A stretch of 64,000 nt of DNA from Polyangiales bacterium (GCA_038231275.1 JBBRLQ010000003.1:236340-300339); one strand, 5' to 3'. Numbered from the stretch's first letter, positions 13,038 to 40,597 are shown. The notes: generated from the sequence alone by a model not told the origin. Translations and numbers: made by a program.

Positions 13038-14105
13038 GTGTACGCTGGTCGGGTGACGCAGGTGCCCGAGCACGCGCTGTCTCCGATCTTCCGGACGACG
13101 ATCGAGGCGCTCCTCGCGCCGCGCCGGCTCATCCCCATCACCGTCGTCATCCTGCCGCTCCTCTTCCTGCAGGTGAACTACAGCTACGACGCGTTCGCGT
13201 TGCCGCTCGCGATGGTGATGTGCGCGGCGTTCCTGCTCGTCGCGCCGACGTTGTGGCGGTTCTACTTTCCGCTGCGCGGCGGGCGTGGGTCGGTCGTCTT
13301 GCGCGGCGTCGCGTACGGCGCGGCGGGCGTCGGGCTCATCCTCGGCATCGGGCGCGGCGTGCCGGCGGTCGTCGGGATGGGGCACACGTTCCTCACGACG
13401 AACCCGAGCTTGCTGGTGTCGATCGCGCTCTTCTGGGTCGGCGGCTGGGGGCTGGCGCGCGACATCGATCTCGAGGCCGACCTCAAGGCGAGCCACGCGC
13501 GGGCGGATGCGCTCGCGCGCGAGGCCGAGCACGCGCAGCTCCTTGCGCTCCGGAGCCATTTCGATCCGCACTTTCTCTTCAACACGCTGAACGCCATCGC
13601 CGAGTGGTGCCGCTCCGACGGTGCGGTCGCCGAGCAAGCGATCCTTCGTCTGTCGTCCATGCTGCGCACCGTAATGAGCGGAATCCAGGCGAAGAGCTGG
13701 CCGTTGTCGAAGGAGCTCGAGCTCGTCGACACCCTCTTCCAGATGTACCTCCTCCGCGATCCTGCTCTTTTCGTGTACCGCCGCGACGTGCCGGACGATT
13801 TGCCGGAGCTCGAGGTGCCGCCCATGATTTTGCTGCCGGCCGCCGAGAACGCGATGAAGCACGGCCCCAGCGCCGGAAAGCGCGGTGACGTCGCGCTTCG
13901 CGTGCGCGCCGACGCGCGGAGCCTGACCGTCGAGATCGAGAACCCCGGCGCCTTCAAAGGGCGCCGCGTGGGAGGGAGCGGCCTGCCGATGATCGAGAAA
14001 CGCCTCGCGCTGACGTATGACGAGGGAGCCATGTTCGACATCCGCGCCGAGGGAGACAAGACGATCGCCACGATCCGCGTTCCGCGAAAGGAGGTCGCCC
14101 GATGA
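13038..14105 (+). CDS. Sensor histidine kinase, LytS/YehU family
   Basis: 355 aa; N-terminal TM helices, His_kinase region (…LRSHFDPHFLFNTLNAI…), HATPase_c region; stop overlaps next gene (ATGA). Confidence 0.85.
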   Translation: MYAGRVTQVPEHALSPIFRTTIEALLAPRRLIPITVVILPLLFLQVNYSYDAFALPLAMVMCAAFLLVAPTLWRFYFPLRGGRGSVVLRGVAYGAAGVGLILGIGRGVPAVVGMGHTFLTTNPSLLVSIALFWVGGWGLARDIDLEADLKASHARADALAREAEHAQLLALRSHFDPHFLFNTLNAIAEWCRSDGAVAEQAILRLSSMLRTVMSGIQAKSWPLSKELELVDTLFQMYLLRDPALFVYRRDVPDDLPELEVPPMILLPAAENAMKHGPSAGKRGDVALRVRADARSLTVEIENPGAFKGRRVGGSGLPMIEKRLALTYDEGAMFDIRAEGDKTIATIRVPRKEVAR

Positions 14106-14857
14106 GCCTGCCCCTGCGTGTGCTGGTGTGCGACGACGAGATGATCGCGCGGAAGCGTGCGTCGCGACTCTTGTCGGAGATGGAAGGGGTCGAGGTGGTC
14201 GGCGAGTGCGAGAGCGGCGACGAGCTCCTCGCCAAGCTCGGGGAGGATGAGATCGATCTCGTGGTCCTCGACATCAACATGCCGGGGATGACCGGCATCG
14301 AGGCGGCGATGAAGATGCCCGAGGAGCGGCCGTACATCGTCTTCCTCACGGCGCATCCCGAGCACGCGCTCGAGGCGTTCGACGTCGGGGCAACGGACTA
14401 TCTGCTGAAGCCCGTCGACGACGCGCGCCTGAAAAAAGCGCTCGATCGCGCGCGAAAGCAGCTCGACGCGCCAACGGGAGGGGGAGGGGGGCCTGGAACG
14501 GCGGGCGTCGGCTCCGATGGCGCGCCGCTCGCGCGTCTTGCGATCGAGACCAAGGGCGGCGTCGTGCTCGTGTCGCCCGACGAGGTGACGCACGCGGTGT
14601 TCGATGGCCAGCTCGTGACCGTGCATACGAAGGAGAAGTCGTACCTGAGCGACGCGACGCTGCAGGACCTCGAGGACAAGCTGCCGAAGGGGCACTTCGA
14701 GCGCGTTCACCGGCGTGCGCTCGTGAACCTGCACCAGGTGGAGCGGCTCGAGCCGGTTCTGAGCGGCGGCTACGTCGCGCGTTTGAACGGCGGAAAGACG
14801 GCAGACGTGTCGCGGCAGGCGGCGCGGAAGCTGCGGCGCAGGCTGGGAATCACCTAG
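14102..14857 (+). CDS. LytTR-family response regulator
   Basis: 251 aa; receiver domain (VLVCDDE…LVVLDINMPGMTG…), C-terminal LytTR DNA-binding domain (…FERVHRRALVNLHQV…). Confidence 0.88.
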   Translation: MSLPLRVLVCDDEMIARKRASRLLSEMEGVEVVGECESGDELLAKLGEDEIDLVVLDINMPGMTGIEAAMKMPEERPYIVFLTAHPEHALEAFDVGATDYLLKPVDDARLKKALDRARKQLDAPTGGGGGPGTAGVGSDGAPLARLAIETKGGVVLVSPDEVTHAVFDGQLVTVHTKEKSYLSDATLQDLEDKLPKGHFERVHRRALVNLHQVERLEPVLSGGYVARLNGGKTADVSRQAARKLRRRLGIT

Positions 14858-14875
14858 CCTCGCGCGCCACCGGTC

Positions 14876-16645
14876 GTGAACCGCGGGCGAGCGGTCGCCT
14901 CGCACGAGTGGGCTGCGCAACATTGTGGGCGGCTCATGCGTCCATCTCTCATGCAATCTCCGCTGCTTCCGCCGCACGCGTACGTCCCCGTCCGACCCCT
15001 CGGGGATGCGGGGGACTTTCCTCTTCCGGTGGCGCCTCCTCCCATCGCGCCCGCGCGACCCCTGGAGCTGGCAGCGCTCGTGGCGATGGTCGTCCTGTTC
15101 GACGTCGCGACGTACGACGCGCCGGGCGGCGCAGGATTCGCGGCGCTCCTCGCCGGCGTTCCGGTCATGCTCCTCGCCGCGGCGCGCGAGCGGGTGCGAT
15201 CGTGGCGCGGGCTCGTGCTCGGCGCGCTCTTGGCGTTCGCGGCGGCGCGCTGCGCCTGGCAGTGGAGCGCGGGATCGGTCGTCGTCGGGCTCGGGCTCCT
15301 CCTCGCCTTCGCGATCGCGCTGCGGACGAAGCGCTCGTTCGTCCCCGAGCTCGTGGTGTCCTCGTTGGGCTCGCTCTTCGGCTCCTTCCGCGAGCTCTGG
15401 AACTTCGGAGGAACCGGCGTCGCGATGGCGCGGCCGGAGCGCCTCTCGAAGGTGCGCTGGGTCGCGCTGTTCGTGCCGCTCGCGCTCGTCGTCGTCTTCG
15501 GGCTCGTCTTCGCGGCGGCCAACCCCGTCGTCGCGCGGCTGCTGCAGGCCGCGATCGCGCACCTGCCGCGCCTCGCATGGTTTCCGTCGCCGCTGCGCGT
15601 CGTCTTCTGGGCGGCGTGCGCGCTCGCGGCGGCGGGGCTCCTGCGTCCGGTGTGCCGCGAGCTCCTCGGCCTCGATACGCGCCTTGGTCCGGGAGAGGCG
15701 CTGGCGCCGAGCGTCGACGAGGCGACGGCGGCGCGGTTGTCGGTGGCGCGCAACGGCATGCTCGCCTTGAACGTCCTCTTCCTCGCGTACAACGCCCTCG
15801 ACGCGGTCTACCTCTGGGCGGGGCGCGCGCCTTCCGGCGTGAGCCACACCGACTACGCGCACGGCGGCGCGGCGTGGCTGACGGTGGCGCTCGTGATGAG
15901 CACCATCGTCCTCGGCGCGATGTTCCGCGGCGCGATCGCGACGGATCCGCAGGGCAAGATCGCGCGCGCGCTGGCGTACGCGTGGGCCGGGCAGAACGTC
16001 GTGCTCGCGATCGGGACGTTCCGGCGGATCACGATGTATGTATCTTACAGCGGTCTCACCAACCTGCGGATCGTGGGGATTTTCGGCACCGCGCTGGCCA
16101 CCGTCGGGCTGGCGGTGATCGTCGTGAAGCTCGCACGCCGGCGCACGATGCTCTGGGTGCTGCGCCGCCAGCTCGACGCCTTTGCGGTCGCGGTGGCGCT
16201 CTACGCCGTGACGCCGACCGGGTGGATCGCGATGCGGTACAACGTCGCGCGGATCGAAGCCGCGCAGTACCGGCCGCTGCTCCACTTATTCCAGCAGCCG
16301 ATCCGCGCTGAGGCGCTCCCCGAGATGATCGCGCTCGTCGATCACCCGGACGCGACCGTCGCCGACGGCGCCGCCGCGATGCTCGTCGATCAAACGGACC
16401 TGCTCGAGCGGCTCGCGCGCGAAGAGCCGCGATGGTCGGAGTGGGAGGGCTCGCGCAGCCACGCGCGTACGGCGCTCGCCGACGCGGCGCCGCGGATCCA
16501 CGCGCGCGCGCCGACGGCCGAGACGCGCGCGGCGGCGTTGGCGAAGCTGCGAGGGGTCGCCTACGGCATCAACGAGGAGGTCGAGCGCGAAGGCGACGAG
16601 GCGGCGTTCGACTGGGCCTCGCGGCGCTATCCGGCGCGGTATTGA
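14876..16645 (+). CDS. Polytopic membrane protein (DUF4173-like)
   Basis: 589 aa with >10 predicted TM helices and a soluble C-terminal tail; start uncertain (alternative in-frame starts downstream). Confidence 0.7.
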   Translation: MNRGRAVASHEWAAQHCGRLMRPSLMQSPLLPPHAYVPVRPLGDAGDFPLPVAPPPIAPARPLELAALVAMVVLFDVATYDAPGGAGFAALLAGVPVMLLAAARERVRSWRGLVLGALLAFAAARCAWQWSAGSVVVGLGLLLAFAIALRTKRSFVPELVVSSLGSLFGSFRELWNFGGTGVAMARPERLSKVRWVALFVPLALVVVFGLVFAAANPVVARLLQAAIAHLPRLAWFPSPLRVVFWAACALAAAGLLRPVCRELLGLDTRLGPGEALAPSVDEATAARLSVARNGMLALNVLFLAYNALDAVYLWAGRAPSGVSHTDYAHGGAAWLTVALVMSTIVLGAMFRGAIATDPQGKIARALAYAWAGQNVVLAIGTFRRITMYVSYSGLTNLRIVGIFGTALATVGLAVIVVKLARRRTMLWVLRRQLDAFAVAVALYAVTPTGWIAMRYNVARIEAAQYRPLLHLFQQPIRAEALPEMIALVDHPDATVADGAAAMLVDQTDLLERLAREEPRWSEWEGSRSHARTALADAAPRIHARAPTAETRAAALAKLRGVAYGINEEVEREGDEAAFDWASRRYPARY

Positions 16646-16648
16646 CCC

Positions 16649-17803
16649 TCACCGGACGGTGCAGCCAAGCCAGCCCATCGGAGCCGGCAGCGCGGTCAGC
16701 GGCGTCCAGTTGCTCAGGGAGCCGTCGCCCGCGACCGTCGACACGAGCACCTCGGAGAGCGCTCCGCCGTCGCGCGCCGACACGCCGCCCAGTACATAGA
16801 TTCGACCGCCGTACGCGACCGCGCAGTGCTCTCCACGCCCGAGGCCTGGGAGAGGCGTCGGCGTGATCGACCACGCTTGGGGGACGTGCGCTACGAGAGT
16901 GGAGACTTCTATCGCGTTGATCGCCGTGTTTGACCCGTTGAACCCGCCGATGACGTAGAGGTGGCCGCCTACGTGGACGAGCTGGGCCATCATCCGCCCG
17001 ACCTTCAGCGGAGGTCCGAGCGAGAACGCACCCGTGATTCCTCCGTCCGCCGTCAGCCCGCCGAACGTCGTCTCGTCGCTCGCAAAGATCTCGGTGGCCC
17101 CATCATTCACCGCGCCGCCGGCCGTGAAGAGCGAAGTGTCGTCGGTGGCCATCGCGTGGCCCCATAGGCCACGGGTCACCTGACCGAAATTCTGGAGCAC
17201 GACCATCGAGGGGCTTACCTGAAGGGCGTAGAGGTCCGGAGAGCCGAGCCCGCTGGCGCCCTTGAAGCCGCCGAGGACGTACACGTTGCTCCCGACGGCC
17301 ACCGCGGCGTGGCGGAACGAGGCCGGCCCGATCACGAGATCGCTCCAGCCGGCGTCCCCGAAGAGGAGCACGTCGTTGTCGGCGCCGCCGCCGTCGGGCG
17401 GGCGACCGTAGAGCGCGACGACGCGGCCTTGCACGTTCACGGTGTGCGCGCCGAGGCGGGCTGACGGTAGATCCTTTTCTGACGCCCAAGGGCCCAGGGT
17501 GCCGTCCGGCAGGATCGGCGCGGAGTGGACGGTGTTCACGCCGTTCCAGAAGTCGGTGCCGCCCGCGACGGCGTAGAGACGCGCTCCACTGGGCGCTGTC
17601 GAGTCGGCGTGGTCCGCGGCGTCGGGCGAGGAGATCGGCGCGTCGGGCTGCGCGGCGTCCGGCGACCCGGGAGCGTCGGCGGCGTCCTCCCCAGCGGCGC
17701 CTCCGTCGGCCGCGGCGTACTCGACGTCATCGACGCCGAGGATGCCCGCGCACCCGCAAATGCCGGCGAAGGCGGCGACGAGCGCGCGCACGTGAGACCG
17801 CAC
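16649..17803 (-). CDS. Kelch-repeat (galactose-oxidase-like beta-propeller) lipoprotein
   Basis: 384 aa; lipobox (AFAGICGCAG), repeated Kelch-like blades (…VYVLGG…, …LYVIGG…, …IYVLGG…). Confidence 0.8.
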   Translation of the reverse strand: MRSHVRALVAAFAGICGCAGILGVDDVEYAAADGGAAGEDAADAPGSPDAAQPDAPISSPDAADHADSTAPSGARLYAVAGGTDFWNGVNTVHSAPILPDGTLGPWASEKDLPSARLGAHTVNVQGRVVALYGRPPDGGGADNDVLLFGDAGWSDLVIGPASFRHAAVAVGSNVYVLGGFKGASGLGSPDLYALQVSPSMVVLQNFGQVTRGLWGHAMATDDTSLFTAGGAVNDGATEIFASDETTFGGLTADGGITGAFSLGPPLKVGRMMAQLVHVGGHLYVIGGFNGSNTAINAIEVSTLVAHVPQAWSITPTPLPGLGRGEHCAVAYGGRIYVLGGVSARDGGALSEVLVSTVAGDGSLSNWTPLTALPAPMGWLGCTVR

Positions 17804-17823: not shown

Positions 17824-20800
17824 GTGAAGCTCCGTCCGGCGCCTTTTCTTTGGTACCACTCGTGTGTGGGCTCTTCGCCGCCTCCGAACGACGACCTCGC
17901 CGCGACGCAAGCCGTGGTGCTGGGCCGCCCCGAAGAGATCGTCGAGCTGCTGCTCGGTCGCCTCGGAGGCGAGGAGGTCCCGCGCGAGCGTGCCGAGCTA
18001 CTCCTCGAGATCGCGACGATCTTCCGCGATCGCCTCGGCGACGCCGCGCAGGCGTTCGACGCCGCGCTCGAGGCGTGGTCGACCGATCCGACGTGGGACG
18101 CGTCGCTCGAGACGCTCGAAGGTCTCACGCGCGCGCAGGGGCGATGGGGTGAGGTCCTCGGTGAGGCGGAGGGGCTCGTCGCCAAAGAGAAGGATCGCGC
18201 GCGTTCGCTCGCGGTCTACGACGCGCTCGTCCGGTGGTACTCCGGCGACGTACCGAGTCCTGAGCGCGCGCGCCTCTACCTCGAACGCATTCGCGCGCTC
18301 GACACCACGCACTGGACGTTGCACCTCTTCCAGGCCGCCGTGTCGCGTGAGCACGGCGATCTGAAGCGCGAGCTCGACGATCTGGATCGCGCCGTCCTCA
18401 GCGCGCGGCGCGTCGACGATCGCACGCGGATCCATCTCCTCATGGCCGCGCGGTACTTGGAGGCGCGCACGCTGAACCTCGCCGAGGCGAAGAAGCATTT
18501 CGCAGCGGCGTGCGCGCTCACGCCGCGCTCGATGGAGGCGCTGCGCGGCCTCGAGACGGTGAGCGAAAAGACCGAGGACTACGCGGGCCTCGCCGACGCG
18601 CTCGCCCGGCAAGCCGACGCCGAGGACGACGTTCCCGCGCGCATCGCCGTCTTGATGCACCTCGCCGAGCTGTACGAGAAGCGGTTCCTGAAGCTCGACA
18701 AGGCCGCGGAGACGCTCGAACGCGTGCTCTCGATCGCGCCGCTCGACACCGCGGCGCTGTCCCACCTCGAGCGCTGCTACCACGCGACGCGCAACTGGAC
18801 CGAGCTCATCACCGCCTTCGAGCGGAGCGTCGTCATGAACGACGAGCCGAGGGAGCAGATCGCGCGCCTCCGCACGATCGCGGAGATCCACGAGTCGAAG
18901 CTCCAAGATCTCGGCTCGGCGCGCTGGGCTCACGAGCGGCTGCTCGTCCTCGCGCCTGACGACGCCCGCGCAGTCTCCGAGCTCGCGCGCATCAGCGACA
19001 AGATGGGCGACGTCCACGGAACGCGTAAATACCGCGAGCTCGTCGCCGAGCTGACCGAAGATCCGGCGGCGAAGGCGCGCGCGTACCTGACGCTCGGGCA
19101 GCTGCTCTCGCCGGCCGATCGCGATCCGGCCGCCGCGCGCGGTCATTTCGAGCGCGCAGTGGAGCTCGACGCGTCGCTCGAGGCCGCGTGGACGGCGCTG
19201 CTCTGGGACGCGCGCAACGCCGGCGACGACGCGCGCGTCACGGCCTACATGGAGCAGCGCGCGCACGCCTCTGGCGGGCCGCGCCAGCGTGCGCAGCTCT
19301 TCGTCGATCTCGCGGTGGCGCGCGCGAAGGAGGCGGGCGGAGAGGAGAGCGCGCTCGCGGCGTACCACGCCGCGCACGAGGCCGATCCCGAGAACGAGAA
19401 GGTCGCGCAGGCGCTGGTGGGGCCGTACGTCGCCGCCGAGCGTTGGGAGGAGGCGGCGCGCACCTACGAGATCGCGCTCGCCGCTGCCGATCGCGATCGC
19501 GACACCGAGCGACGCTTCGCGCTCCTCCTCCTCGGCGGGAAGATCCTCGCGGCGAACGGCGATCCTCGCGGCGCGCTCGCGTCGCAGGTCTCCGCGTTCG
19601 AGCTACGGCCGGATTCGGCGGACGCGCAGATGGGGCTCATCACCACGGCGGCGGCGTTGTCCTCCGAGCCGGACGATCTCGCGCCCGCGAAGGACGCGCT
19701 CGAGGCGGCGGGTCGCGCGCCGGCGGAATTACCACCGGACTGGCTGGCGTCGCTCGCGGATCTGCTCGTCGTCTGCGGAGAGACGAAGCACGCCTACGCG
19801 CTCTACGACGCGGCGCTGAAGAGCGATCCGCAGGAGCGCACCGCGCTCACGGGTTTGGCGCGCCTCAGCGAGCTCGACAAGGACGTCGTCGTCGCGAGCG
19901 CGATCAGCCGCCGCCTCGCCGCGACGCTCGAGGATCAAGACGAGCGCCTCGCGACGCTCCTCCACGCCGGCGAATCGCTCGTGGCAGCAGGCAAGCTCGA
20001 TCTCGCCGCGCAGGCCTACGAGGACGCGCGCCTATCGCACCCGGCCCATCGCCCGGTGCTCCACGTGCTGCTCGATCTCTACACGAAGCTCGAACGCTGG
20101 GAGAGCCTCGTGGGCGTGCTCCGATCGATCGCCGACGCCGACGAGGATCGCGGCCGGCGCGCGCGCGTCGTCGGGACGATCGCCGAGCTCGCGCAGTCGA
20201 AGCTCGCCGATCTCTTCGCGGCGGCGTCGGCGTGTGACGAGGCGCTCGAGCTCGATCCCGAGCGCCTCGAGCCCTTCCAGCGGCTCGTGGGGATTCGCAC
20301 GACGCAGAGGGACTGGACCGCCCTCGAGCGCGACTATCGGAAGATGATCCACAGGTCGCAGGGGCACGGCGATGCGAAGCTCCAGCACGCGCTCTTCCAT
20401 CAGCTGGGGCTGGTCTACCGTGATCGCCTGAAGGATCGCGCGCGCGCGATCGACGCCTTTCGCGCGGCCGTGGAGCGAATGCCCGACGACGCGGCGACGC
20501 AGTCGATGCTGCGCGAGCTCCTCGAGGTCACCGGCAACGTGGCCGACGCGCTCGCCGTCGCGCGCGCGCGCCTCGCCAACGATCCGACCGCGGAGGACGC
20601 GTACGCGCCGCTCGTCGACCTCTCGATCCAGATCGGCGACGCCGACCGAGCGTGGTGCGCGGCGTCCAACATGGATCTCCTCGGCATCCTCGGCGAGAAG
20701 CACGCCGCGTTCTTCCGCGCGTGCCAGCCCGCGATGCTCGCGGCGATCGCGGGGCGCCTCGACGAGGGCGATTGGCGACGGCACCTCCTGCACCCCGGGC

Positions 20801-21552
20801 TCGATCCACGGCTCACGGAGATCTTCGAGATCGTCGCGCCCGCCGCCGTCGACGCCGAAATCGCGCGCATTCCGCTCATGCAGCGGATGGGGCACCCCGG
20901 CAAGGCGCTCGCGAAGACGCCGCAGCTCCAAGCGGCGCGCGACGCGATCGATCGCGCGAGCGAGATCCTCGGGCAGAAGCCTCCGAAGCTGTACGAGCGC
21001 GCCGTAACGGGGGCCGCGTTCGCCGCCGCGCGCACGCGTCCGCCGTCGCTCTTCGTCGACGCGGCGGCGGCGGTGATGATCTCGTGGGCCGAGCTGCCGT
21101 TCGTCCTCGGCAAGCGCCTCTTCGAGCACGCGCCGCCGCTCCTCGCGCGCGCGCTCTTCCCGACGGTGAGCGAGCTCGGGCAGCTCGTGGCGATGGCGGT
21201 GGCGGCGCTCGTCGGCAACCCCAAGACCGACCCGCTGCGCCCGCACATCCGGCCGCAGGATCTCGCGCGCCTCGGACAGCTCGTCGAGTCGAGCCGCGCG
21301 ACCGGAGGGGAGCTCGACGTGAAGCGGTGGGCGCAGCTCGCCGATCTCTCGAGCAGCCGCGCGGGCCTCCTCCTGGTCGGCGACGCGAGGCGGGCGCGCG
21401 CGGCGTTGGCGCGTGAGCCGCAGCTCCCCGGAGATCTGCCGGCGCGCGATCAAGCGCGCGAGCTCCTCGCGTTCATGGTGAGCGACGCGCACCTCGCCCT
21501 GCGCCGCACGCTCGGGATCGCGGTCGGCCCAGGAGCGATCCTCCGCCCGTGA
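17824..21552 (+). CDS. Large TPR/helical-repeat protein
   Basis: 1242 aa; dozens of ~34-aa helical repeats (…AYLTLGQLL…, …ALYDAALKSDP…); only 20 bp from the divergent gene, so the true start may be an internal GTG (e.g. near 17914); stop overlaps next start (GTGA). Confidence 0.8.
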   Translation: MKLRPAPFLWYHSCVGSSPPPNDDLAATQAVVLGRPEEIVELLLGRLGGEEVPRERAELLLEIATIFRDRLGDAAQAFDAALEAWSTDPTWDASLETLEGLTRAQGRWGEVLGEAEGLVAKEKDRARSLAVYDALVRWYSGDVPSPERARLYLERIRALDTTHWTLHLFQAAVSREHGDLKRELDDLDRAVLSARRVDDRTRIHLLMAARYLEARTLNLAEAKKHFAAACALTPRSMEALRGLETVSEKTEDYAGLADALARQADAEDDVPARIAVLMHLAELYEKRFLKLDKAAETLERVLSIAPLDTAALSHLERCYHATRNWTELITAFERSVVMNDEPREQIARLRTIAEIHESKLQDLGSARWAHERLLVLAPDDARAVSELARISDKMGDVHGTRKYRELVAELTEDPAAKARAYLTLGQLLSPADRDPAAARGHFERAVELDASLEAAWTALLWDARNAGDDARVTAYMEQRAHASGGPRQRAQLFVDLAVARAKEAGGEESALAAYHAAHEADPENEKVAQALVGPYVAAERWEEAARTYEIALAAADRDRDTERRFALLLLGGKILAANGDPRGALASQVSAFELRPDSADAQMGLITTAAALSSEPDDLAPAKDALEAAGRAPAELPPDWLASLADLLVVCGETKHAYALYDAALKSDPQERTALTGLARLSELDKDVVVASAISRRLAATLEDQDERLATLLHAGESLVAAGKLDLAAQAYEDARLSHPAHRPVLHVLLDLYTKLERWESLVGVLRSIADADEDRGRRARVVGTIAELAQSKLADLFAAASACDEALELDPERLEPFQRLVGIRTTQRDWTALERDYRKMIHRSQGHGDAKLQHALFHQLGLVYRDRLKDRARAIDAFRAAVERMPDDAATQSMLRELLEVTGNVADALAVARARLANDPTAEDAYAPLVDLSIQIGDADRAWCAASNMDLLGILGEKHAAFFRACQPAMLAAIAGRLDEGDWRRHLLHPGLDPRLTEIFEIVAPAAVDAEIARIPLMQRMGHPGKALAKTPQLQAARDAIDRASEILGQKPPKLYERAVTGAAFAAARTRPPSLFVDAAAAVMISWAELPFVLGKRLFEHAPPLLARALFPTVSELGQLVAMAVAALVGNPKTDPLRPHIRPQDLARLGQLVESSRATGGELDVKRWAQLADLSSSRAGLLLVGDARRARAALAREPQLPGDLPARDQARELLAFMVSDAHLALRRTLGIAVGPGAILRP

Positions 21553-22127
21553 CCAACCGCTCGATCGCGGCCCGCCTCCTCTTCGACGCGGAGCACTACA
21601 CCGAGCTCGTGCTCAAGGCGATCGCAGGCGCGAGGGTCTCGCTCTGGATCGCCACCGCCAACCTGAAAGAGATGCGAATCGAGGCGCCGATCGGCACCGT
21701 CGCGCGCGCGAAGGGTCGCTTCCTGTCGATCCTCGACACGCTCGACGATCTGTCGAAGCGCGGCGTCGAGCTGCGCCTCCTCCACGCGAGCCGGCCGTCG
21801 CGCCCCTTCGCCGCCGAGCTCGCCCGCCACCCGCGCCTCAAGCGCGGCGGCCTCGACATGCGTCTCTGCCCGCGCGTCCACATGAAGCTCGTCGCCATCG
21901 ACGGGCGCCTCCTCTACCTCGGCAGCGCGAACTTCACGGGCGCGGGACTCGGCGCGAAAGGCGACGGCCGGCGCAACTTCGAGATCGGGCTCATGACCGA
22001 GGACGACGTCCTCCTCGACGTCACCCAAGCGCGCTTCGACCGTATTTTCTCGGGCAAAGAATGTGCAGGATGCAAGCTTCGCGGCGTGTGCCCGAAGCCG
22101 ATCGACACGCTGGTGAAGCGCCGATAG
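21549..22127 (+). CDS. Phospholipase D-family single-HKD protein (Nuc-like nuclease candidate)
   Basis: 192 aa from GTG; canonical HKD motif HMKLVAIDGRLLYLGSANFTGAGL (HxKx4Dx6GSxN); C-terminal Cys cluster (CAGCKLRGVC). Confidence 0.8.
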   Translation: MTNRSIAARLLFDAEHYTELVLKAIAGARVSLWIATANLKEMRIEAPIGTVARAKGRFLSILDTLDDLSKRGVELRLLHASRPSRPFAAELARHPRLKRGGLDMRLCPRVHMKLVAIDGRLLYLGSANFTGAGLGAKGDGRRNFEIGLMTEDDVLLDVTQARFDRIFSGKECAGCKLRGVCPKPIDTLVKRR

Positions 22128-22152: not shown

Positions 22153-22740
<588 letters not shown>

Positions 22741-22768
22741 GACCGATGCAGGTAGCAGAGTTCGAGCC

Positions 22769-23371
22769 ATGAAGCGACACGCGCCGGCCACCGATCGCAA
22801 CCGCGAGCCGATCCTCTCCGTTCTCTCTCGGGTGCTTCCGCCCTCCGGAACGGTCCTTGAAATCGCGAGCGGCTCCGGAGAGCACGCCGTGTTCTTCGCG
22901 TCACGGCTTCCCGGCGTCATGTGGCAACCGTCCGATCCCGACGACGCCGCGCGCGCGAGCGTCGACGCCTACCGTGAGGAGACCGGACTCGCCAACGTGC
23001 TCCCGGCACGCGCGCTCGATGCGCGCGACGACGCGGACGTGTGGGGGATCGCGCGCGTCGACGCGATCGTGTGCATCAACATGATCCACATCGCGCCGTG
23101 GTCGTCGTGCGAGGGCATGATGCGCGGCGCCGGACGCCTGCTCGGTCCCGGCGGCGTCCTCTTCTTGTATGGCCCCTTCACGCGCGACGGCGCGCACACG
23201 GCGCCGAGCAACGCGAGCTTCGACGAGAGCCTGCGCGCGCGCGATCCGGCGTGGGGCGTCCGCGATGTCGCCGACGTGACACGCGAAGCCGAGACGAACG
23301 GCCTCGCGCACGTCGAGACCGCCCCCATGCCGGCGAACAACCTCGCCGTCGTCTTCGCGCGCGGCCGCTGA
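22769..23371 (+). CDS. DUF938-like class I SAM-dependent methyltransferase-fold protein
   Basis: 200 aa from MKRHAPATDRNREPILSVL; (…VLEIASGSGEHAVFFA…) glycine-rich SAM-binding-like motif. Confidence 0.65.
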   Translation: MKRHAPATDRNREPILSVLSRVLPPSGTVLEIASGSGEHAVFFASRLPGVMWQPSDPDDAARASVDAYREETGLANVLPARALDARDDADVWGIARVDAIVCINMIHIAPWSSCEGMMRGAGRLLGPGGVLFLYGPFTRDGAHTAPSNASFDESLRARDPAWGVRDVADVTREAETNGLAHVETAPMPANNLAVVFARGR

Positions 23372-36441: not shown

Positions 36442-40560
<4,119 letters not shown>

Positions 40561-40597
40561 CGCCGCCTCCCTTGCAGGTCAGCGTCGCATGGTTTCG

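Follow-up and report, generated by a model that had tools for sequence, protein, structure and literature searches.

In the phospholipase D (PLD) superfamily, nucleases are typically homodimers of chains with one HKD motif each, and lipid-active members usually hold both motifs in one chain (PMC10783504). Among the described single-HKD proteins, Zucchini/MitoPLD (PLD6) is a piRNA-pathway endoribonuclease whose N-terminal helix anchors it to the mitochondrial outer membrane, and Nuc (pKM101/Salmonella) and NucT (Helicobacter pylori) are secreted or periplasmic. Zucchini also has a zinc-binding motif beside its catalytic groove. Here, we examined a stretch of 64,000 nucleotides from a Polyangiales bacterium (GCA_038231275.1 JBBRLQ010000003.1:236340-300339), called the window below, in which the gene for a single-HKD PLD protein directly follows the gene for a giant tetratricopeptide repeat (TPR) protein. 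An initial annotation of this DNA had proposed that the two genes form an isolated, co-expressed module of scaffold and nuclease, possibly with a role in defense or conflict. It is likely, in our judgment, that they are two independently evolving genes that form no functional module, a TPR scaffold and a separate housekeeping single-HKD PLD protein, which would itself most likely be a nuclease. Only in one genus-level Polyangiales clade (Labilithrix/Polyangiaceae-like soil Myxococcota) do the two genes lie side by side, and there they are probably co-transcribed. Each family occurs without the other elsewhere, so the adjacency is most likely accidental. Gene structure, domain identities, conservation and the lack of co-occurrence were observed directly, and dimerization, zinc binding, substrate and scaffold role are inferred from them and from analogy.

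The structural model of the window PLD protein (AlphaFold2, pLDDT 86.9) was matched best by mouse Zucchini/PLD6 (4ggk/4ggj, E ~3e-9, TM-score 0.56-0.68), NucT and Nuc (6ehi, TM-score 0.58/0.68; 1byr, 0.56/0.69). There were 110 PDB structure matches at E<=1e-3, and those listed were PLD-superfamily or PLD-like-fold proteins. Zucchini and the window protein both have one HKD motif per chain in a domain of about 170-190 residues, and by analogy the active site would have to form across a homodimer. However, the two are only 18-19% identical, and the window protein has no transmembrane segment and no piRNA-like context. Its four-cysteine pattern (C-x64-C-x2-C-x5-C), which uses the C-terminal tail, is placed differently from the zinc motif of Zucchini and is at most analogous to it. 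Nuc and NucT, at 14-20% identity, share the single HKD motif, and the EDTA-resistant phospho-histidine mechanism would be expected in the window protein as well. They have no cysteine cluster, and they are secreted or periplasmic, whereas no hydrophobic N-terminal stretch was seen in the window protein. Assignment to the NucT equivalog (NCBIfam PRK13912) was rejected on scores of 12.9-16.4 bits against cut-offs of 211-351 and the lack of a hydrophobic N-terminal segment.

Conservation of the gene pair

The pair was checked from both sides. For the PLD gene, the best 80 species-representative loci (55-73% identity) of at least 544 were searched by tblastn, and the TPR giant or its C-terminal domain was found within 7 kb in none of the 80. 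For the TPR giant, no PLD gene lay downstream in any of 18 loci outside the window's clade, among them the orthologues P0125, L011 and L012 (43-51% identical). A metagenome scan with a six-sequence alignment of the giant's C-terminal domain gave 16 loci. A PLD gene follows in only one of these, L100, which is 83% identical and belongs to the window's clade; the remaining 15 (33-47% identical), all with 680 bases or more of sequence behind the giant, lack one. The adjacency was seen only in the window's own clade, where the TPR proteins are 79-83% identical. The proposed module of scaffold and nuclease had been made to depend beforehand on conservation of the two genes as neighbors, and since they are not conserved in this way, the proposal is refuted. 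The two-sided check removes the pair, and the region is not worth following up as a defense or scaffold-nuclease module. Both families are uncharacterized but lie within known superfamilies, and the picture that remains is a clade-specific adjacency of one member of each.

The closest relatives place the difference within a syntenic block. A histidine kinase, LytTR and DUF4153 block is common to the window, L006 and L093. In L093 (TPR 80% identical), the order is histidine kinase, LytTR, DUF4153, TPR, PLD, lipoprotein (- strand) and DUF938. L094 and L095, which have the next closest PLD protein (83%), carry histidine kinase, LytTR, PLD, lipoprotein (- strand), DUF938 and acyltransferase, with neither DUF4153 nor TPR; L094 thus retains the upstream block without DUF4153. 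Because L094 and L095 keep the synteny without the TPR gene, this gene is an insertion/deletion difference in the block, whose constant part is made up of the two-component system together with PLD, the lipoprotein and DUF938. A comparison of the window with L006 puts PLD first in conservation within the block at 90% identity, ahead of TPR at 81%, the lipoprotein at 79% and DUF938 at 73%. The slot between DUF4153 and TPR is variable. It holds a Kelch lipoprotein gene in the window (16649-17803, - strand) and an AAA_15/DUF4276 pair in L006 (2309-4188), and it is empty in L093 (5642-5666). The AAA_15 ATPase and DUF4276 in the L006 slot make up a defense-like pair. The description of an isolated two-gene unit between unrelated convergent and divergent genes applies to the window, but not to L093, where the TPR gene lies 23 nt behind DUF4153 on the same strand.

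In the window, the GTG start of the PLD gene at 21549 overlaps the TGA stop of the TPR gene at 21550-21552, giving the sequence GTGA (21549..21552, + strand), as had been described. Stoichiometric co-expression had been read from this overlap. In the closest relatives, the overlap of 4 nt is replaced by a spacer, which is 4 nt in L093 and 23 nt between TAG and GTG in L006/L007. Since the junction varies between -4, +4 and +23 nt, translational coupling is not a conserved property and stoichiometric co-expression does not follow. When seen in a single genome, overlapping start and stop codons of the genes for a large repeat protein and a small enzyme do not amount to evidence for a system.

One possible explanation for the adjacency is that, in this one clade, the TPR giant was recruited to serve the PLD protein as a scaffold, regulator or targeting subunit and that the two are co-translated from one mRNA. 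A lineage-specific functional link of this kind can be entertained because the pair stays adjacent and co-directional, at no more than 23 nt, in all contigs of the clade. In addition, the GTGA overlap would permit translational coupling in the window, and a promoter and terminator consensus scan found no site, including between and after the two genes, although such a scan is uninformative at 70% GC. However, at about 80-90% identity between the clade contigs, synteny alone would lead one to expect that adjacency is kept across so small a distance, and the overlap itself is not conserved. The TPR and PLD families occur separately in all other lineages sampled, and elsewhere the gene that adjoins or overlaps PLD on its upstream side is an unrelated one (4HBT thioesterase, RpiA and others). 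We consider recruitment of the giant to be quite unlikely.

The PLD protein

The PLD gene (21549..22127, + strand) encodes a single-HKD PLD-superfamily protein of 192 residues with an isoelectric point of 10.2. Its open reading frame (ORF) matches Pfam PLDc_2 (E 1.3e-14, 54.6 bits against a cut-off of 27; residues 22-166) and PLDc (25.1 against 21.9 bits). There is a single PLDc_2 stretch and a single PLDc motif, giving one HKD motif per chain. A hydropathy scan showed no hydrophobic N-terminal stretch and no transmembrane segment, and no signal peptide is present. The HKD motif HMKLVAIDGRLLYLGSANFTGAGL and the sequence CAGCKLRGVC are both found in this ORF. Conservation was assessed in alignments of 16, 53 and 25 sequences. 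The motif, H111-x-K113-x4-D118-x6-G125-S126-x-N128 (21879..21932, + strand), shows no variation at H111, K113, D118, G125 and N128 among 25 sequences with identities as low as 33%. In this set S126 reaches at least 90% conservation, and it is invariant among the 53 closer relatives, which are all about 180-260 residues long. These results agree with the initial annotation, which had described a perfect HKD motif in a single-domain protein of about 190 residues and an architecture of the Nuc/BfiI/Zucchini type rather than one with two HKD motifs; no second half is present, and the closest folds are those of Zucchini, NucT and Nuc. The protein fits the pattern of the single-HKD nuclease group (Nuc, NucT, BfiI and Zucchini), which has one motif per polypeptide and a domain size of about 150-200 residues.

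The C-terminal CxxC...C cluster, also described at the outset, was found as CxxCx5C. It comprises C172-x2-C175-x5-C181 (22062..22091, + strand), is invariant across the family and is modeled at pLDDT 84-92. A further invariant cysteine, Cys107 (21867..21869, + strand), lies four residues ahead of the catalytic histidine and is the proposed fourth ligand of a Cys4 site. C107, C172, C175 and C181 are invariant down to 33-40% identity, including in AT-rich members and one Planctomycetota protein. This conservation suggests that the cysteines form a Cys4 zinc site, by which the subfamily would be defined. The subfamily is highly conserved and well delimited by the HKD motif together with C-x64-C-x2-C-x5-C. 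No specific model for it exists, and the window protein falls into none of the curated families. This signature may be useful to annotators of myxobacterial genomes.

By analogy with every characterized single-HKD member, two PLD chains would pair to build one composite active site. His111 of one chain would attack the phosphodiester and form a phospho-histidine intermediate, the histidine of the other chain would protonate the leaving group, and catalysis would need no metal. C107, beside the catalytic strand, and C172, C175 and C181 would most likely hold a structural zinc ion, through which the C-terminal tail would be fixed to the strand of the active site. The substrate is most likely a nucleic acid, as for Nuc, NucT and Zucchini, and the role would be one of housekeeping and not of defense. 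Taken together, conservation and these analogies point to a cytoplasmic, homodimeric, metal-independent phosphodiesterase whose substrate is probably nucleic acid.

Database searches gave more than 7400 homologues of the PLD protein, of which the best 120 are 66-92% identical; the named ones among these 120 come from Polyangiaceae, Myxococcales metagenome-assembled genomes (MAGs) and Pendulispora. An orthologue is present in at least 544 species genomes (one genome per species; 55-92% identity across Polyangiales), including those of Labilithrix luteola, Sorangium, Chondromyces, Byssovorax and Polyangium. A search of 1.84 billion cluster representatives gave 733 matches at E<=1e-3 and 71 at E<=1e-30, as in a compact family. 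No domain fusion among the longer homologues was informative, and no paper on the subfamily was found in the literature.

A broader reading would see the PLD protein as an uncharacterized, vertically inherited Polyangiales housekeeping nuclease with relatives scattered in Planctomycetota and Bacteroidota. It would be a zinc-stabilized bacterial counterpart of Zucchini in RNA processing or DNA repair and, in the window's clade, would be under the control of, or in a complex with, a TPR/pseudo-zincin scaffold downstream of LytS/LytTR. As a whole, this reading seems unlikely to us.

Substrate and role of the PLD protein

Homology does not fix the substrate on its own, because a profile search of the PDB ranked a phospholipase and vaccinia F13 above the nucleases. 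The order was the two-HKD Serratia phospholipase D (7e0m, E 2.4e-11), F13, PLD3 and NucT (E 3e-5). The PLD protein could instead act on phospholipids, either as a MitoPLD-like cardiolipin hydrolase or as a small transphosphatidylase at the inner membrane face. Besides the profile ranking, this possibility draws on the annotation of mouse PLD6/MitoPLD, the best fold match, as a cardiolipin hydrolase as well, and on the basic character of the protein, which could bind anionic membranes. Lipid genes also lie near the PLD gene in some loci, namely the window, L094 and L010. The genes in L010 encode inositol-phosphate synthase, CDP-alcohol phosphatidyltransferase and PgpA, and a PlsC-type acyltransferase is present in the window as in L094. 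However, such neighbors are not conserved across loci, and the protein has neither a membrane anchor nor an amphipathic N-terminus. The single-HKD homodimer is typical of nucleases, whereas lipid-active members usually have two motifs per chain (PMC10783504). In several PLD orthologues the C-terminal tail is rich in K, R and S, as is more often the case in proteins that bind nucleic acids. Action on phospholipids therefore appears doubtful, although it deserves to be kept in mind, and a nucleic acid substrate is preferred.

A match to the cardiolipin or phosphatidylserine synthase families had been named as a result that would speak against the proposed module. These families were rejected, since the protein has a single HKD motif and its scores fall below the cut-offs (ClsB 17.2 bits against 281, bac_cardiolipin 14.6 against 290). 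The source pipeline (JGI names) labels many subfamily members as phosphatidylserine/phosphatidylglycerophosphate/cardiolipin synthase-like enzymes. Because of the single HKD motif and the sub-threshold Cls scores, such a name is doubtful and probably wrong for this subfamily.

The suggested role in defense or conflict would make the PLD nuclease an effector like DrmC (DISARM) or MkoB (Mokosh), with the TPR giant as the sensor. DrmC and MkoB are PLD-fold proteins and were the top PADLOC and NCBIfam matches for the window PLD protein, though weak ones (MkoB, E 2e-07; NCBIfam DISARM_DrmC_I, 40.2 bits). A 36%-identical homologue in Segatella hominis also lies among WYL, PD-(D/E)XK, AAA ATPase and helicase genes. 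However, the cut-off for DISARM_DrmC_I is 133 bits, no DISARM or Mokosh partner genes occur in the window, and the neighbors are the TPR giant, lipoproteins, DUF938 and a two-component system; DISARM DrmC, for which drmA, drmB and methylase genes would be expected alongside, was rejected on these grounds. The TPR giant had no PADLOC match and no NTPase motif. The PLD family is widespread and strongly conserved in varied housekeeping contexts (RpiA, thioesterase, Dus and RecA regions). No match was found by tblastn in phage records, and only two distant ones in plasmids. Composition is also flat across the region. The PADLOC and NCBIfam matches are sub-threshold hits to the generic PLD fold, and an anti-phage or conflict module is highly improbable.

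Some of the results weigh against reading the locus as two unlinked genes, one of which encodes a housekeeping nuclease. Within the clade, the pair is adjacent and co-directional in every contig (the window, L006/L007, L093, L100 and the 16-kb contig of P0001/P0124), and the PLD-centered check sampled the 80 best of the at least 544 loci. The substrate is unsettled at the level of the sequence profile, in which 7e0m and F13 outrank the nucleases, and anionic lipids would also be compatible with a basic surface. Zinc binding by the four cysteines and dimerization are suggested by conservation and analogy only.

Neighborhoods of the PLD gene

No conserved partner of the PLD gene emerged when the neighbors in 87 non-redundant loci were clustered, as no family occurred in more than 12. 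Several neighbors recur within lineages: the convergent lipoprotein in 12 loci, an upstream 4HBT thioesterase in 14 and RpiA in 13. The downstream lipoprotein is the more widely conserved neighbor of PLD, and its 12 non-redundant loci include Labilithrix luteola. The gene upstream of PLD differs from lineage to lineage. It is the TPR giant in L006/L007 (PLD 90% identical), an ABC transporter permease in Pendulispora (L001, ~68%), a divergent SpoU methylase in a Myxococcales MAG (L002/L003, ~71%) and a divergent RpiA gene in L010 (70%). In L004/L005 (~68%) it is a 4HBT thioesterase gene and in L008/L009 (81%) a ribose-5-phosphate isomerase gene, each with a 4-bp overlap.

Polyangiaceae proper (L035, L037, L056, L057 and L084-L087; Polyangium, Byssovorax, Sorangium and Chondromyces) have the conserved order 4HBT thioesterase, PLD and ribose-5-phosphate isomerase, often with a 4-bp overlap between the PLD gene and the stop of the thioesterase gene. 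In L094 (6044-8585) and L095, PLD lies directly behind the genes for a LytS-type kinase and LytTR with a 14-nt gap. A possibility is that PLD expression in this lineage is tied to the LytS/LytTR two-component system.

A metallophosphoesterase gene adjoins PLD in Pendulispora, in one Myxococcales MAG and in Segatella. It was rejected as a partner, as the three enzymes are mutually unrelated and there was no recurrence in 80 loci. The Segatella hominis gene (L096, NZ_CP137560.1 21665-22198) is on a 317-kb secondary replicon and is the better of the two plasmid matches. It lies directly upstream of the metallophosphoesterase gene, and the surrounding genes encode WYL, PD-(D/E)XK, AAA ATPase, S8 peptidase and helicase proteins. 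This context is defense-island-like, unlike the myxobacterial ones.

The TPR giant

The TPR gene (17824..21552, + strand) encodes 1242 residues from the GTG at 17824, as had been claimed, and is supported by Pfam, codon GC and homologues. The TPR/helical-repeat array spans residues ~220-927 (18481..20604, + strand). Pfam TPR_7, TPR_19, TPR_14 and TPR_8 scored above their cut-offs at residues ~310-890, and PDB sequence matches (consensus TPR proteins and the OGT TPR domain) cover residues 222-941. The earlier statement that the giant has no recognizable catalytic motif was borne out. It has no Walker A motif ([GA]xxxxGK[ST]) and no transmembrane segment, and no NTPase match was found in Pfam or NCBIfam. 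PADLOC gave no match, NCBIfam gave only generic TPR matches below threshold, and the overall charge of the protein is acidic. A STAND/Avs-type TPR sensor was rejected because no P-loop NTPase or Walker A motif lies ahead of the TPR array. The other giant ORF in the window (36442-40578, - strand) was compared as a possible paralogue, and no relationship was found.

The exact start of the giant is uncertain, because conservation begins around residues 34-56 and the database copy starts later. Homologue alignments start only at residues 34-56, and the copy, P0121, which is 100% identical, has 1228 residues from an alternative GTG at 17866, 14 codons downstream. Full-length orthologues are 79-81% identical in the window's clade, 43-51% identical at ~1200-1250 residues, and 33-36% identical in Labilithrix-like proteins of 1400-1900 residues.

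The C-terminal ~315 residues (20605..21549, + strand) form a non-TPR domain with a probable zincin-like (M48/M56-like) fold that lacks HExxH. The last ~300 residues are kept as a separate domain in all family members, including the kinase-TPR proteins of Sorangium, and a search with this domain alone in a word-indexed database gave five fragments only. Its AlphaFold2 model is very confident (pLDDT 93.6, pTM 0.92). The domain resembles M48/BepA, and the E. coli protein BepA, an M48 metalloprotease that also has a TPR domain, is among the closest known systems. However, the HExxH metal site would have been lost: neither HExxH nor HxxEH was found in any of 17 family members, and the helix after the beta-sheet carries [GA][KR][HRK][LVIMA] in place of HExxH. 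An M48/M56 zinc metallopeptidase (BepA, HtpX, Ste24 or BlaR1) was rejected, as these require HExxH. We assign the fold with moderate confidence, and the domain may be a pseudo-peptidase of the zincin type that ends the TPR scaffold and serves for binding. The giant is a member of a family of very large cytoplasmic TPR proteins in Polyangiales and most likely serves as a non-catalytic scaffold that binds proteins or peptides.

Also among the closest known systems are the Sorangium Ser/Thr-kinase-TPR giants (e.g., P0232, 1761 residues). Their TPR body is 25-28% identical over 84-98% of the query, and they share the C-terminal zincin-like domain (27% identity, E 2e-24). However, the window protein has no counterpart of their N-terminal Pkinase domain, and none of them was seen adjoining a PLD gene. 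The Polyangiales TPR giants, including the kinase-fused ones of Sorangium, all end in this confidently modeled, probably zincin-like domain without a metal site, which may also be of use to annotators of myxobacterial genomes.

Gene layout in the window

Both ORFs have the coding-type pattern of GC content by codon position (GC1 > GC2 << GC3) in DNA of about 70% GC, with values of 0.77/0.54/0.86 for the TPR ORF and 0.72/0.54/0.83 for the PLD ORF. Neither is a chance ORF, since both have hundreds to thousands of homologues. The GTG at 21549 is the earliest possible start in the PLD frame, and conserved N-terminal residues begin at residues 4-10.

The syntenic block upstream (13038..16645, + strand) consists of genes for a LytS-type histidine kinase (13038-14105), a LytTR response regulator (14102-14857) and a DUF4153 membrane protein (14876-16645). 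It is followed by the divergent Kelch-repeat lipoprotein gene (16649..17803, - strand) upstream of the TPR gene. Downstream of PLD lies the convergent gene for a lipoprotein with a Thr/Ala-rich linker after the lipobox (22153..22740, - strand), which is 79% identical to L006 8646-9239 and starts at Met61 of the ORF 22153-22920. The longest ORFs in this part, 22153-22920 (- strand) and 22292-23371 (+ strand), overlap by ~630 nt. Comparison with relatives showed that the real genes there are the lipoprotein gene, 22153-22740 (- strand), and a DUF938 methyltransferase gene from ~22772.

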